A DNA stretch of 63,989 nt, the filler included, from Reclinomonas americana ATCC 50394 (taxonomy: Eukaryota), in assembly GCA_048213135.1 (NCBI GenBank). It is 9 parts of 4 records of this genome, joined end to end, with 100 filler letters (N's around TTAATTAATTAA, not from the genome) between each part and the next. Parts side by side here need not be neighbours in the genome. Positions count along the whole stretch, not along the records: positions 1 to 16,851 come from PS015449.1; positions 16,952 to 24,197 come from PS015449.1; positions 24,298 to 34,339 come from PS015450.1; 6 more parts are not named here. The stretch is one strand, 5' to 3'. Position numbers and translations under genes: made by a program. The notes beneath the pieces are model-generated. The model made no database searches, was not told where the DNA came from, and saw only the letters and a program-made list of their open reading frames with translations. Below are positions 14,938 through 26,020 of this stretch, in pieces; position 1 is the stretch's first letter, and each line of letters starts with the position of its first letter.

Positions 14938-16023
14938 TCACAAGTGCCGCCGGGGATCTGTGCTGCATCGGAACAGCACAACCTCAGCCTCCTCCACAAT
15001 GAAGCACCGCAGCACCATCTCCGGCAAGCATCGCGAATCCGCCTCGATCTCCTGCTGCAGCTCTTGCACTGCTCGCATGGCCAAACGAGCTCCGTCCACC
15101 TCTCGCTGAGCAAGACCATGCGGAGTGGACCACACTCGGATTGTCTGGTCGCCATCAGCACTCACAATGTGCTGGCCATTGCGAGTGACAGCAACGGCTG
15201 TGACCGCGGCACTATGGCCATCCAGCCGTCGCACTTCTTCACCATCCGCCAGGGACCACAATCGGACAGCCTCGTCGCCGTCTCCGCTCACGACGTACCG
15301 GCCATCGACTGTGACAACAACAGAGAATACCTCTCGAGTGGCACTCGTCAAGCAGCGCACTTCGTCGCCAGTCGCCAGCGACCACACTCGCACTGCGCCG
15401 ACACTGTACCTCTTGCCACTCCCGCTCACAACGTGCTGACCATCCGGAGTGACGGCGAGAGCGAACAAGACCTCATCATCTGATTCCCACTCTCGCACTT
15501 TCTCACCAGTGGCCAGCGACCATACACATATAGTCCTGTCATATCCGCCACTCACCACGTACAGCCCGTCGGGAGTGATCGTAACACAACGCACATGTTT
15601 CGCGTGGCCGCGAAACACTTGCACTTCTGCACCAGTCGCCAGAGACCACACATGGACATGCGTGTCCATACCGCCAGTCACCACGTGCTGACCATTGGGC
15701 GTGATGGCGAACGACGATGCGTCGGCCCTCCACCTCCGCACCTCGTCACCACTCGCCAGAGACCACACTTGAACAATGCCATCTACACTCCCGTACACAA
15801 TGTGCTGGCCATCGGGAGCAACAGCGACACAAAGCACTCCACCACCACGTGCTTCGAACCACCGAACCTTCTTGCCAGTCGCCAGTGACCACACACGCAC
15901 TACGCTGTCAACACCCCCGCTCACAACATGCTGATCGTCGGGAGTGATGGCGACACTGCACACCCCGCCCGCGTGTCCCCGCAACACGAGGCTGTGGAGA
16001 ATGACAGAAGCAGCGCTTGACAT
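14938..16023 (-). CDS. WD40 array copy 1: intronless 7-blade propeller + conserved C-terminal tail
   Basis: 361-aa ORF with seven ..AVTPDGQHVVSG.D..VRVWS-type repeats and the tail DSRCLPEMVLRCFIVEEAEVVLFRC. Confidence 0.93.
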   Translation of the reverse strand: MSSAASVILHSLVLRGHAGGVCSVAITPDDQHVVSGGVDSVVRVWSLATGKKVRWFEARGGGVLCVAVAPDGQHIVYGSVDGIVQVWSLASGDEVRRWRADASSFAITPNGQHVVTGGMDTHVHVWSLATGAEVQVFRGHAKHVRCVTITPDGLYVVSGGYDRTICVWSLATGEKVREWESDDEVLFALAVTPDGQHVVSGSGKRYSVGAVRVWSLATGDEVRCLTSATREVFSVVVTVDGRYVVSGDGDEAVRLWSLADGEEVRRLDGHSAAVTAVAVTRNGQHIVSADGDQTIRVWSTPHGLAQREVDGARLAMRAVQELQQEIEADSRCLPEMVLRCFIVEEAEVVLFRCSTDPRRHL

Positions 16024-16197
16024 TCGATGGGCGACGGATTGAGAGAGACGGACGAGGACGACGTCGGACCCATTTTCCTGGACGTGTTGAGCGACGTCTT
16101 CTTTCTCGTACGAAGTGAGGTTTCATTCATCGCCTGCAACTTGCAAGAGAATGCGAGACAGAGGAAGAGAATCGGTAAAATGGCCTTGCCACCTGCT

Positions 16198-23493: not shown

Positions 23494-24930
23494 AGACCAA
23501 GCGAGGACAGCAGGATTCATCGACGTTGACATTTGAAGACGGTCATCTTCTTCGGACCAAGGGACGTCCTTGTTGCAGAAAGCTCGCAAACCGAGCACAA
23601 GCAGAGGCGCGGCATAGTTACATTGCAAGCTCGGATTAGGCTGAGAAAAAGGGGGATTGAGTGTGTTATAGGGAGAGAGAAAGCGAGCTCGAGAGAATTA
23701 GGGAGAGAAAAGAAAGATACCAAGAACGAGTCACTTCCGCGCTCACTTCGGAAACAGACCGGGCAGCCAAGGGCCACAAGAAAAGCGAGAGAGGCAGCAA
23801 ACAAAGCTCCAGGCGTTCGCGCATCACCATCTGAAGTGCATCACACTTGCCACTCGGGATCCGCGGAGCATCGGAACAGCAGAACCTCCGCCTCCTCCAC
23901 GATGAAGCACCGCAACACCATCTCCGGCAGGCATCGCGAATCCGCCTCTTCTTCTTCTTCGACCTCCCGTTGCAACTCCTGCACAGCCAGCATCGCCGAC
24001 TGCGCTACGCACAGCTCCTGCTGAGCGAGGCCGCGGGGCGTGGACCACACGCGGACGGTGCTGTCTCGACTCCCACTCACGATATGCTCGCCATTGGGAG
24101 TGACGGCAACACACTCCACCACGTCAGTGTGCGCCTTCAACCGTCGCACCTCCTTGCCACTCGCCAGTGACCACACTCGCAATGTTTTGTCTCCGCTNNN
24201 NNNNNNNNNNNNNNNNNNNNNNNNNNNNNNNNNNNNNNNNNTTAATTAATTAANNNNNNNNNNNNNNNNNNNNNNNNNNNNNNNNNNNNNNNNNNNNCCG
24301 CACAGTCTCATCGATGCTCCCACTCACGATGTGTCGACTGTCGGGGGTGACAGCCACACAACTCACCCAGTCAGTGTGTCCCTCCAACCGTCGCACTTGC
24401 TCACCAGTCACCAGTGACCACACGCGCACGACATTGTCGCTGCTTCCACTCACCACATGCTGACCATTGGGAGTGAGAGCCACTGCTCGCACCTCTCCAG
24501 CGCGTCCCTCCAGCAACTTGTTCAGCAGGAAGAGAGGGCAAGCAGTGCGTGACATGGGGGCAAGTGACGGAATGTGCCGGCGTGTGAGACCAAGCGAGGA
24601 CAGCAGGATGGATCGACGTTAACATCTGAAGACGGTCATGTTCTTCGGACCAAGGGACGTCCTTGTTGCAGAAAGCTCGCAAACCGAGCACAAGCAGAGG
24701 CACGGCATAGTTACATTGCAAGCTCGGATTAGGCTGAGAAAAAGGGGGATTGAGTGTGATAGGGAGAGAGAAAGCGCGAGAAAGAGGGAGAGAAAAGAAA
24801 GATACCAAGAACGAGCCACTTCCGCGCTCACTTCGGAAACAGACCGGGCAGCCAAGGGCCACAAGAAAAGCGAGAGAGGCAGCAAACAAAGCTTCAGGCA
24901 TTCGTGCACCACCATCGGAAGTGCATCACA
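23494..24930. repeat. Near-identical ~350-bp intergenic spacer duplication (23494-23850 vs 24586-24930)
   Basis: Long identical runs in both spacers, e.g. TCTTCGGACCAAGGGACGTCCTTGTTGCAGAAAGCTCGCAAACCGAGCACAAGCAGAGG and CACTTCCGCGCTCACTTCGGAAACAGACCGGGCAGCCAAGGGCCACAAG. Confidence 0.9.
23841..24555 (-). CDS. WD40 array copy 7 (middle missing at a contig linker; the ends could belong to two genes)
   Basis: 5' fragment MSRTACPLFLLNKLLEG with two blades; 3' fragment with the last blade and the tail FRCSADPEWQV. Confidence 0.75.
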
Positions 24931-26020
24931 CTTGCCACTCGGGATCCGCCGTGCACCGGAACAGCACGACCTCCGCCTCCTCCACGATGAAGCAGCGCAG
25001 CACCATCTCTGGCAGGCATCGCGAATCCGCCTCTTCCTCTTCTTCGACCTCCCGTTGCAACTCTTGCACAGCCAGCATCGCCGACTGCGCCACGCAGAGC
25101 TCCTGCTGAGCGAGGCCGCGGGGCGTGGACCACACTCGGATGGTGCCGTCGATACTCCCACTCACGATATGCTGACCATCGAAAGTGACAGCAACACGAT
25201 CCACACACTTCGTGTGACCCTTCAGCTGCTGCACTTCTTCTCCATTCGCCAAGGCCCACACCCGCACTGTCTTGTCATAACTCCCACTGACAACGAAAGT
25301 GCCATCAGGAGTGGCGGCGACACACTGCACCGCATCAGTGTGTCCGTGCAGGCATCGCAATTCTTCTCCGCTCGCCAGTGACCACACCCGAACTGTGTCG
25401 TCGTGACTGCCAGTCACGATGTGTTGCCCGTCGGCAGTGACAGCCACAGACCACACCTCATAGTCATGTCCTTCGAACCGTCGTACCTCCTCGCCACTCG
25501 CCATTGCCCACAACGTTGCCATCTCGTCCTCACCTCCACTCACGATGTGCTGCCCATCGGGAGTGACAGCGACGGAGAACACACCCCATCCAACCTCCCA
25601 GCGACGCACCTCTTCTCCACTCACCAGTGACCACACTCGTAGCGTGCTGTCCCAGCCACCACTCACAAGGTGCTCACTGTCGGGAGTAACGGCGACCGAC
25701 CACACCTTATTTTCGTGACCTTCCAACCGTCGCACCTCTTCACCAGTTGCCAGTGACCACACTCGCACAATGCCATCCCAATCGCCACTCACAATGAACC
25801 GACCATTGGGAGTGACAGCCAAACACTGCACCCAGTCGCTGTGTCCCTCTAACCGTCGCACTTGCTCACCAGTTGCCAGCGACCACACGCGCACAGTGTT
25901 ATCGGAACCTCCACTCACAACTTGCTGACCATCGGGAGTGACAGCAAGAGACAGCACTTGTCCAGTGTGTCCCTCGAGTACCTTGTTCAGAAGGAAGAGA
26001 GGGTGAGCAGCGCGCGACAT
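24926..26020 (-). CDS. WD40 array copy 8
   Basis: Starts MSRAAHPLFLLNKVLEGH, has seven blades and the tail FRCTADPEWQV. Confidence 0.92.
   Translation of the reverse strand: MSRAAHPLFLLNKVLEGHTGQVLSLAVTPDGQQVVSGGSDNTVRVWSLATGEQVRRLEGHSDWVQCLAVTPNGRFIVSGDWDGIVRVWSLATGEEVRRLEGHENKVWSVAVTPDSEHLVSGGWDSTLRVWSLVSGEEVRRWEVGWGVFSVAVTPDGQHIVSGGEDEMATLWAMASGEEVRRFEGHDYEVWSVAVTADGQHIVTGSHDDTVRVWSLASGEELRCLHGHTDAVQCVAATPDGTFVVSGSYDKTVRVWALANGEEVQQLKGHTKCVDRVAVTFDGQHIVSGSIDGTIRVWSTPRGLAQQELCVAQSAMLAVQELQREVEEEEEADSRCLPEMVLRCFIVEEAEVVLFRCTADPEWQV

Follow-up and report, generated by a model that had tools for sequence, protein, structure and literature searches.

A tandem array of WD40 propeller genes with a conserved C-terminal tail in Reclinomonas americana

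The window we analyzed, a stretch of 63,989 nucleotides (filler included) assembled from nine parts of four records of the Reclinomonas americana ATCC 50394 genome (GCA_048213135.1), carries eight WD40 ORFs arranged head-to-tail on the minus strand within positions 14938-26020. The initial annotation had claimed at least eight head-to-tail paralogues in about 11 kb with spacers of about 175-400 nt, and both statements agree with our measurements: the eight ORFs share one strand, and the spacers, measured between the conserved Met and the preceding stop, are 174, 178, 313, 220, 327, 371 and 370 nt (174-371 nt). A tblastn search of the whole window with g6 as query gave 29 HSPs, all within 14941-26020, and no further copies in the rest of the window. 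The genes are as follows.

14938..16023, minus strand: g1, intact 361-aa WD40 gene with seven blades and tail; AF2 model 1 was made on this copy
16198..17537, minus strand: g2, WD40 gene with N runs at 16852-16951 and 17273-17432; essentially complete
17716..18834, minus strand: g3, intact 372-aa WD40 gene; diverges most from the other copies and has the longest Glu tract
19148..20260, minus strand: g4, intact 370-aa WD40 gene
20481..22041, minus strand: g5, WD40 gene with an N run at 21452-21926; essentially complete
22369..23469, minus strand: g6, intact 366-aa WD40 gene (P0001); the query copy, AF2 model 2
23841..24555, minus strand: g7, short copy whose pieces flank the N run 24198-24297
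24926..26020, minus strand: g8, intact 364-aa WD40 gene (P0002)

Five of the eight copies (g1, g3, g4, g6 and g8) are uninterrupted ORFs, and the other three are broken solely by N runs, none of their pieces containing a stop. The gaps in g2 and g5 hide only 0-3 residues, the pieces of g2 corresponding to g1 residues 1-35, 36-142 and 144-357 and those of g5 to g4 residues 1-37 and 41-370. In g7 the pieces supply N-terminal residues 1-86 and C-terminal residues 247-364, and a 100-nt gap stands in place of residues 87-246; since blades 3-6 are thus missing from the assembly, g7 is either truncated or under-assembled. The ORF of g3 is open upstream as far as 18963, the extra stretch having no protein-level conservation.

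The units appear to be independent single-ORF genes, each with its own conserved upstream DNA boxes, of which the cores lie at:

16121..16128, minus strand: GAATGAAA core of the upstream box GGAGGYGATGAATGAAAC of g1, conserved between copies
17590-17597 (g2), 18958-18965 (g3), 20423-20430 (g4): GAATGAAA core in other copies
16060..16065, minus strand: GACGTC core of the other g1 upstream box, CTCGACGTCGTCCTCGTCCGTCTC; conserved between copies
17574-17579, 18889-18894, 20316-20321, 22100-22105: GACGTC core in other copies

Because an ATG inside the GGAGGYGATGAATGAAAC box shares the reading frame of the gene in just two of four copies, we read this box as non-coding, that is, as a promoter, leader or uORF; a remnant of it also lies downstream of g1. 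The CTCGACGTCGTCCTCGTCCGTCTC box is found 42-64 nt ahead of the ATG in g1-g5, and as this distance is not always a multiple of three (-61 in g4, -64 in g5) its conservation is at the DNA level. Conservation of such boxes between copies fits local tandem duplication.

Apart from the N runs, the WD40 genes read as single uninterrupted ORFs. The initial annotation had set them against a background in which introns interrupt nearly all other genes at intervals of 100-300 nt, a picture borne out only in part: a LIDHydrolase-like neighbor gene is spread over three frames, and TMEM260-like and GT1 domains are partial inside single ORFs of the window, but an LRR_9 gene and an SGL-like gene each occupy a long single ORF.

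The encoded proteins have three parts, about eight leader residues, a canonical seven-blade propeller and some 65 residues of tail, in a common layout in which a helix, a Glu tract and the conserved CLPEMVLRCFIVEEAEVV tail come after the WD40 propeller. This layout had been described before and recurs in the array: all eight copies have the helix, the Glu tract and the conserved tail, and most (5/8, g4-g8) also have the PLFL-type leader. All five intact copies match PF00400 (E 3e-50 to 4e-78; 167-255 bits against a cut-off of 27; 5-7 stretches), and only WD40/beta-propeller families were among the best 25 of the 44-52 Pfam families per protein in whole-protein scans. The AF2 models have 28 strands forming seven four-stranded blades in a closed propeller (pLDDT above 90) with helices after it, and profile and closed fold together place the proteins in the WD40/seven-blade beta-propeller superfamily. 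In these models about eight residues precede the first propeller strand, leaving no room for a signal peptide or an N-terminal domain, which would make any sensing intracellular. The top PDB matches are 2ymu, PkwA (5yzv) and WRAP-T designer propellers (Z about 50, rmsd 0.9-1.0 A, 37-38% identity), with alignments that span model residues 4-300 only; PDB matches overall have an rmsd of 0.9-1.6 A across 277-301 residues. Named sequence matches of the propeller include proteins of Paxillus, Rhizoctonia, Gemmataceae and Parafrankia, and the propeller falls into the consensus-like class that is typical of STAND-associated WD40s in prokaryotes and fungi. The high internal DNA similarity previously attributed to the blades has to be qualified, as within a gene they share 52-75% DNA identity (mean 63.8%, or about 64%; maximum 74.6%) and a mean of 50% protein identity (range 0.33-0.67), values that are consistent with a consensus-like propeller but not with near-identical repeats. 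Blades of different index from different genes are 63.2% identical, so that there is no sign of within-gene homogenization or of concerted repeat evolution.

The tails lie at the following positions.

22372..22581, minus strand: tail module of g6, taken as representative; 28 invariant columns in eight tails, profile matches and model helices
14941-15132, 16201-16383, 17719-17946, 19151-19360, 20484-20678, minus strand: tail stretches of g1-g5
23844-24047, 24929-25132, minus strand: tail stretches of g7 and g8

In sequence order the tail consists of the WSTPxGLA amphipathic helix, a Glu-rich loop and then RCLPEMVLRCxIVEEAEVVVFRC...PEWHL. Twenty-eight columns are invariant across the eight tails, and the entropy of the tail, 0.58 bits, is about equal to that of the most conserved propeller strand. 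Helix 1 bears a heptad-like conserved stripe (L7, A8, E11, A15, A18, V22, Q23, Q26), the length of the acidic linker ranges from 0 to about 14 residues across copies, and the second helix, CLPEMVLRCFIVEEAEVVVF, is very hydrophobic. A first AF2 run, on five sequences, gave the last 30 residues a pLDDT below 50 and another helix pattern; with an eight-sequence alignment the tail helices fall at 300-328 and 338-360 (pLDDT about 77-82, pTM 0.87). In this one shallow-alignment model, the tail is a helical hairpin of amphipathic helix, variable-length acidic loop and hydrophobic helix, although the motif, being rich in beta-branched residues, could alternatively form a beta-hairpin.

The tail matched no Pfam or NCBIfam entry, and a PDB profile search with it returned nothing. 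The initial annotation had proposed searching more widely with a tail profile, and when we did so against 1.84 billion representatives of about 15 billion proteins (clustered at 50% identity) there were four matches, three of them genuine. One is a 116-aa Reclinomonas americana EST product (P0123; E 1e-27), 53-72% identical to the window copies and, as a homologous transcript product, the only expression evidence for the family. The other two, P0124 (381 aa) and P0126 (394 aa), have the tail motif at the extreme C-terminus behind propellers that are respectively 21% and 30% identical to that of g6, and even in P0124 the charged and polar motif residues (E, R, C, E, E) equal the hydrophobic ones in their degree of conservation. 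P0125 was rejected as a spurious repeat protein, and the sole metagenome locus, L001, as a spurious out-of-frame match inside a bacterial ATPase gene; with nothing in NCBIfam either, the tail was not found in prokaryote-type proteins. The only named tail relative is jakobid (Reclinomonas americana). On the strength of these searches, the tail is the unusual part of the locus, matching no described domain.

The claim that a variable propeller is joined to a constant tail is upheld by entropies of 1.53 bits in the B-C loops and 1.47 bits in the D-A loops of the top face, compared with 0.69 and 0.77 bits in bottom loops and the value for the tail given above, and by retention of the tail on propellers of only 21-30% identity. 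Top-face variability is, however, generic to all WD40 proteins and so does not by itself show ligand diversification. Propeller dN/dS is 0.28-0.62 over pairs (0.28-0.43 in pairs of intact copies, 0.62 in g1/g2), that of the tail motif is 0.09-0.22 in nine of ten pairs of intact copies (0.42 for g3-g8), and purifying selection acts on both parts. As paralogues the copies are old: dS ranges from 0.20 in g1/g2, where nt identity is 84-90% and g2 is the nearest paralogue of g1, to above 1, with most copies at 0.6-1.3 and no pair below 0.20. Loss of the GH dipeptide from several blades of g1/g2, together with their propeller dN/dS, suggests that some copies may be decaying. Tails are 90% nt identical between g4 and g6 and 94% between g7 and g8, while the propellers of these pairs are only 63-75% identical (63-74% for g4/g6), a mosaic pattern that reflects homogenization of the tails by gene conversion. 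The tail is more conserved than its propeller, and owes its uniformity to both selection and gene conversion.

Does this array represent a non-self recognition repertoire of the HET-E/HNWD kind, with propellers made hypervariable by repeat shuffling and positive selection and a constant tail signaling in place of NACHT? The top-face loops are indeed the most variable class, variation in fungal HET-E/HET-D/HNWD NLRs is likewise focused on the top face of consensus-like repeats, and this propeller class is also used by fungal and bacterial STAND proteins. In addition, dN/dS in the youngest pair, g1/g2, is 2.26 in the top loops versus 0.22 in the bottom loops, and non-synonymous change in the former greatly exceeds that in the latter (Fisher p=5e-6). 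However, the excess of top-loop dN over dS in that pair rests on about four synonymous differences and is not significant (Fisher p=0.088), older pairs have top-loop dN/dS of 0.23-0.67 with saturated dS, and the copies are old; the array had been described as rapidly evolving, which these data do not show, the g1/g2 top loops being the only hint of diversifying selection. Unlike the fungal NLRs, this is a tandem array of short genes (about 365 aa), whose products have neither an N-terminal effector with NACHT nor near-identical repeats (64% nt at DNA level) bearing the marks of concerted evolution, and the analogy originally drawn with HET-E/HNWD repeats fails. That NACHT is absent had been stated correctly: neither NACHT nor NB-ARC occurs in the 239 window ORFs of at least 90 aa that lie beyond the array. 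Taken together, we consider such a repertoire quite improbable.

Seeding of the array by recent bacterial horizontal transfer or by retroposition would explain both the lack of introns and the bacterial-type propeller, and is in keeping with single ORFs beside at least one neighbor gene split over several frames, with a best sequence match to a 595-aa protein of a 1978-nt metagenome contig (57% identity) and with best structural matches that are prokaryotic or designer propellers. That identity, though, is no higher than among the paralogues (50-59% to g1), as expected from convergence on the WD40 consensus, the tail was not found in any prokaryote-type protein, and the LRR_9 and SGL genes are also long single ORFs. 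There is no compositional support for the retroposition or transfer that had been suggested, GC and GC3 being near those of neighboring exons (GC3 0.62-0.74 versus 0.71-0.84), no poly-A remnant or target-site duplication was seen in the inspected spacer sequences, the copies are old, and their upstream boxes fit local duplication; we regard this origin as very improbable. It is barely credible that the eight copies are an assembly artefact of collapsed or duplicated haplotypes or mis-scaffolded reads, despite the N runs in three copies, an odd 44 N, 12 nt, 44 N arrangement that occurs twice inside the array, and the four blades missing from g7. Inter-copy nt identity is 52-94% by segment, the spacers are unlike in length and sequence, and dS is at least 0.20 in every pair, which counters the assembly duplicates that the initial annotation had named as a possible refutation. 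The copies are distinct paralogues, and uncertainty is limited to how many there truly are and to the state of g7. A further possibility is that the tail is purely structural or self-associating, a coiled-coil-like dimerizer or an intramolecular cap, and that the paralogues are ordinary scaffolds with redundant or subfunctionalized housekeeping roles and no common effector. Coronins, in which a C-terminal extension serves as an intramolecular cap, provide a model for this, and the heptad-like stripe of helix 1, the hydrophobic helix 2, the helix-loop-helix modeled at pLDDT about 80 and the purifying selection on all parts are compatible with it. The conservation of polar and charged motif residues even on the 21%-identical propeller of P0124 goes beyond usual packing needs, and a linker of such variable length points to a flexible tether rather than a rigid cap; we consider this explanation unlikely, while allowing it some real weight.

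We favor, with a probability of roughly 0.5, the interpretation that tandem duplication has produced here a rare, lineage-restricted family of small WD40 adaptors that act inside the cell and in which the tail would be a shared output module. The top faces of the propellers would bind different ligands and the tail would dock all paralogues to one shared partner complex or, alternatively, mediate self-association. Conservation in helix 1 is confined to a single stripe, suggestive of packing, and in helix 2 it extends all round, which suggests a contact element. More speculatively, and in our estimation rather unlikely, the tail may be an undescribed docking module coupling diversifying propellers to a common effector, for which a ubiquitin-ligase-type core is the most plausible candidate, and the array a NACHT-less intracellular recognition or substrate-receptor repertoire in a deep-branching protist lineage. 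As WD40 propellers are common and their tandem expansion is unsurprising, what stands out is the C-terminal module of about 65 residues. If it docks a common partner, a little-studied eukaryotic branch would supply a new case of a “variable sensor, constant adaptor” design and the tail would merit definition as a domain; should it prove no more than a structural cap, the locus is an ordinary lineage-specific gene expansion.

How do these proteins compare with known systems? Those nearest to the propeller are the consensus-like WD40 proteins of prokaryotes and lower eukaryotes, such as Nostoc punctiforme 2ymu and Thermomonospora curvata PkwA 5yzv, and in the classification given there, internal repeat identity of 0.4-0.7 is “moderately repetitive” and of at least 0.7 “highly repetitive” (Hu et al., 2017; PMC5587647). 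By those quoted bands the window proteins, at 0.50, are moderately repetitive and below the 0.7 cut-off, our value being a mean pairwise identity that differs from the exact procedure of Hu et al. (2017). They share with 2ymu and PkwA the seven blades and very regular repeats, but are without a kinase, STAND or other N-terminal domain and have an orphan C-terminal tail that is absent from 2ymu and PkwA, whose alignments end at about model residue 300. Small WD40-only proteins of a few deep-branching protist lineages that include Reclinomonas are also represented by Gcp1-3, which are described as Pex7-like and as accompanying the mitochondrial T2SS in three groups, the jakobids, heteroloboseans and malawimonads (Horvathova et al., 2021; PMC8134430). 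By that description Gcp1-3 are Pex7 relatives, whereas the window propellers are consensus-like; we found no link between them, and three tail-motif strings had 0 occurrences in six supplementary files of PMC8134430.

A possible resemblance of the tail to cullin-RING receptors we treat as a lead, not a result. The WD40 receptors of cullin-RING ligases, namely the F-box/WD40 and SOCS-box/WD40 (WSB) proteins and the DCAFs with their helix-loop-helix, combine a variable propeller with a short helical docking motif, in families that often expand in tandem. The window motif, an LP followed by an amphipathic helix, loosely recalls the start of an F-box, but it is C-terminal and only about 30 residues long, and neither the F-box nor the SOCS-box family appeared in an hmmscan of 11 tails against Pfam (E up to 10) or among the best-ranked families of the whole proteins. 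No WDxR motif was seen in 35 blade sequences of the window WD40s, in which the blades end in VWS. DCAFs have a DDB1-binding helix-loop-helix, and a helix-loop-helix is also predicted for the window proteins, at the C-terminus. The repertoire proposed here would be analogous to the expanded F-box, SOCS-box and DCAF families, but built on a new motif.

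The eight WD40 ORFs proposed by the initial annotation form a head-to-tail array on the minus strand between 14938 and 26020 (g1 to g8, in order of rising coordinates): a tblastn search with g6 gave 29 HSPs, all of them within 14941-26020 and none in the rest of the window. Five copies (g1, g3, g4, g6 and g8) are uninterrupted, and g2, g5 and g7 are interrupted by N runs only, with no stops in their pieces. The pieces of g2 correspond to g1 residues 1-35, 36-142 and 144-357 and those of g5 to g4 residues 1-37 and 41-370, and because these are nearly contiguous, the written gap lengths (160, 100 and 475 N) are unrelated to the sequence missing. 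In g7, a 100-nt gap stands in place of residues 87-246 (blades 3-6); either the copy is truncated or its assembly is incomplete. The spacers, from the conserved Met of one copy to the previous stop, measure 174, 178, 313, 220, 327, 371 and 370 nt. The window is a scaffold holding 29 N runs; its G+C content of ~55% and several Pfam domains broken up between frames give it a eukaryotic look. Eight of its gaps share one design, two runs of 44 N around 12 bases (in g2, about one residue is missing at such a gap), which resembles an artefact of scaffolding or gap filling, and the N lengths carry no information:

16852-16951, 44N-12-44N gap
24198-24297, 44N-12-44N gap
34340-34439, 44N-12-44N gap
37391-37490, 44N-12-44N gap
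48822-48921, 44N-12-44N gap
53085-53184, 44N-12-44N gap
59932-60031, 44N-12-44N gap
62770-62869, 44N-12-44N gap

An Rfam scan of 13000-27500 found no family. None of the eight plus-strand ORFs across the array had a Pfam match, and we rejected them as genes, taking them for antisense artefacts that arise from a G+C-rich repeat.

The common layout of propeller, helix, Glu tract and conserved tail recurs in every copy, as had been claimed. Pfam searches of the copies returned WD40 and beta-propeller families only, and two AF2 runs gave 28 strands forming seven four-stranded blades (pLDDT >90). As the first strand closes blade 7 and only ~8 residues precede it, neither a signal peptide nor an N-terminal domain would fit in the model. 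The closest PDB structures were Nostoc 2ymu (highly repetitive), Thermomonospora PkwA and the designed WRAP-T propellers (Z ~50, rmsd 0.9-1.0 A, 37-38% identity), and all of these alignments end at model residue ~300. Sequence searches behaved similarly: 3708 of 8000 candidates had E <1e-20, the best being a metagenome protein (P0003) at 57% identity, the top matches spanned mostly 75-85% of the query, which is the propeller without the tail, and the named matches were a mix of fungal and bacterial proteins.

Past the last blade, each copy continues with WSTPxGLA plus an amphipathic helix, then a linker rich in Glu (0 to ~14 residues) and a closing motif, (D/E)(S/P)RCLPEMVLRCFIVEEAEVVVFRCxxxPEWHL; 28 columns are invariant across the eight tails. 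An AF2 run with five sequences left the last 30 residues at pLDDT <50, and one with eight sequences, including distant relatives, gave helices at 300-328 and 338-360 (pLDDT ~77-82) with an acidic loop between them, which suggests that the tail may fold as a helical hairpin. Conservation in helix 1 is a stripe on one side only (tail positions 7, 8, 11, 15, 18, 22, 23 and 26), and in helix 2 it extends to all sides, charged residues included. The LP-plus-helix start loosely resembles an F-box, an identity for which hmmscan gave no support. Four of the eight copies end in -HL (as RHL or WHL), two residues that resemble a PTS1-type peroxisomal signal, but the -3 residue departs from the pattern usual for such signals:

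14941-14949, -HL end of g1
17719-17727, -HL end of g3
19151-19159, -HL end of g4
22372-22380, -HL end of g6

Where else does this tail occur? We found no meaningful match to it in Pfam (E up to 10), NCBIfam (E up to 1) or a PDB profile search (E up to 10), and no usable match in the ESM Atlas. A HMMER search of the kind proposed at the outset, with an eight-tail profile against 1.84 billion representative proteins, returned four proteins at E <=0.001, one of which (P0125, a short internal-repeat protein with MTLRCSIVEPTGVIFL repeats) was rejected as unrelated. The first of the others, P0123, is a fragment of 116 aa that EukProt labels an EST product of Reclinomonas americana; it is 63-72% identical to seven copies and 53% to g3, and is evidence of transcription for a homologue, in one species, rather than for this locus. 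The remaining two, P0124 (381 aa, on a 5765-nt contig) and P0126 (394 aa, on a 2262-nt contig), have a propeller followed by the tail at the extreme C-terminus, as in g1-g8, with propellers 21% and 30% identical, respectively, to that of g6. A word-indexed search with the g6 tail among proteins of 201-641 aa gave 24 candidates, none of which scored, and the same index with an 11-tail profile and longer proteins included gave P0124 and P0126 only. A metagenome scan with the tail alignment produced 87 pattern matches and one confirmed locus, which proved spurious, as it lies on a bacterial contig and matches out of frame within a P-type ATPase gene. The tail module therefore defines the family, predates the array and is very rare in present data. 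In literature searches on jakobid or Reclinomonas nuclear genomes, repetitive WD40/HNWD proteins and protist WD40 expansions, none of the papers listed dealt with this family.

The array is old and maintained. Among the intact copies, Nei-Gojobori estimates for the propeller gave dS of 0.59-1.28 and dN/dS of 0.28-0.43, and for the tail motif dN/dS was 0.09-0.22 in nine of ten pairs and 0.42 in g3-g8. Even the youngest pair, g1/g2, has a dS of 0.20, with dN/dS of 0.62 for its propellers and 0.34 for its tails, and these values rule out that the copies are assembly duplicates. When residues were classed by the strands of the AF2 model, entropy was highest in the B-C and D-A loops of the top face (1.53 and 1.47 bits), and lower in the A-B and C-D loops of the bottom face (0.69 and 0.77 bits) and in the tail (0.58 bits). 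In g1/g2, dN/dS was 2.26 in the top loops versus 0.22 in the bottom loops (p=5e-6 for the contrast), although the top loops, with ~4 synonymous differences, do not carry significantly more non-synonymous than synonymous change (p=0.088); in older pairs top-loop dN/dS was 0.23-0.67, with dS saturated. This pattern fits relaxed or diversifying evolution of the ligand face, but WD40 proteins show it generically. Tails and propellers have had separate histories: the tails of g4/g6 and g7/g8 are 90% and 94% identical in nucleotides, with dS of 0.19-0.25, while their propellers are 63-75% identical, with dS of 0.6-0.9. Selection is therefore not the sole force keeping the tail constant, gene conversion or segmental exchange being added to it.

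Upstream of several copies stand two conserved DNA boxes: GGAGGYGATGAATGAAAC, at 60-170 nt from the ATG of g1-g4 and with a remnant downstream of g1, and CTCGACGTCGTCCTCGTCCGTCTC, at 42-64 nt from the ATG of g1-g5. Because neither box keeps a constant frame with the ATG, we read both as putative promoter or leader elements. The first box contains an ATG of its own (ATGAAACYCCAC..., peptide MKPHFVS/MKLHLVS) and occurs at four sites:

16121-16128, upstream box with ATG
17590-17597, upstream box with ATG
18958-18965, upstream box with ATG
20423-20430, upstream box with ATG

In g3 and g4 this ATG shares the frame of the WD40 ORF, and in g1 and g2 it does not; it is a candidate conserved uORF start or leader element. 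A coding N-terminal extension (MKPHFVS...) was rejected because it is in frame in g3 and g4 only and the intervening peptide is unconserved. The g6-g8 copies share a separate upstream region (~92% identical between g6 and g7). Every unit therefore has its own upstream region, as whole-gene tandem duplication would yield. Horizontal transfer had been entertained; composition lends no support to a recent one, with GC3 of 0.62-0.74 in the WD40 genes versus 0.71-0.84 in neighbouring exons. The best outside match, at 57% identity, is no closer than the paralogues are to one another (50-59%).

The neighbouring genes bear only in part on the intron contrast drawn by the initial annotation. A LIDHydrolase-like gene is split over frames, which is direct evidence of short introns, and the TMEM260-like and glycosyltransferase matches are partial, but the LRR_9 and SGL-like matches lie in long single ORFs:

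2298-2993, plus, LRR_9 ORF (Pfam)
9899-11062, minus, SGL/arylesterase-like ORF (Pfam)
31196-32740, plus, flavoprotein ORF (Pfam)
32432-33629, minus, LIDHydrolase-like (PF10230), three ORFs in different frames at profile positions 7-66, 67-103 and 181-231
37833-38174, plus, glycosyltransferase group 1 ORF, C-terminal part only (Pfam)
38254-38901, minus, GNAT ORF (Pfam)
47523-47876, minus, TMEM260-like ORF, N-terminal part only (Pfam)

The LRR_9, SGL/arylesterase-like, flavoprotein, glycosyltransferase, GNAT and TMEM260-like ORFs have no obvious tie to the WD40 family. Just downstream of the array (13015-14410), long (TC)n/(GA)n tracts surround an 865-nt N run and translate to SLSLSL or RERERE in several frames. 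Directly upstream of g8 (26141-28235, minus) are two long overlapping ORFs of 350 and 418 aa with a Pfam match in neither, the Cys-, Thr- and Ser-rich products of which are possibly secreted or surface proteins.

What, then, might these proteins do? It is secure that they form an old tandem family, maintained by selection, of small WD40 proteins that are intracellular, vary on the top face and share an orphan, conserved tail. The most likely mechanism, to which we give a probability of about 0.5 with both variants for the tail taken together, is that each propeller would bind a paralogue-specific ligand and that the tail would serve as a common interaction module, either docking to a shared partner or mediating self-association. 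The boldest reading, that the tail is a new docking motif linking a diversifying group of WD40 proteins to a single effector (for instance a ubiquitin-ligase core), we consider unlikely.

More improbable still is a hypervariable receptor of the HET-E/HNWD type (the fungal WD40 plus NACHT sensors), the analogy drawn at the outset. The positive selection expected of such a receptor can be looked for in the top loops of g1/g2, where dN/dS of 2.26 comes with p=0.088, and this reading founders on two defining features, the NACHT domain and near-identical repeats. The blades had been credited with high internal DNA similarity; they are regular, yet not near-identical, with mean identities within a gene of 63.8% (52-75%) in nucleotides and 50% in amino acids, so that by the cut-offs of Hu et al. 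2017 (PMC5587647; 0.7 for highly and 0.4 for moderately repetitive) they are at most moderately repetitive. Between genes, mean nucleotide identity was 66.5% for blades of the same index and 63.2% for blades of different index, and the latter, set against the 63.8% within genes, gives no sign of the homogenisation within a gene by which HET-E/HNWD repeats are defined.
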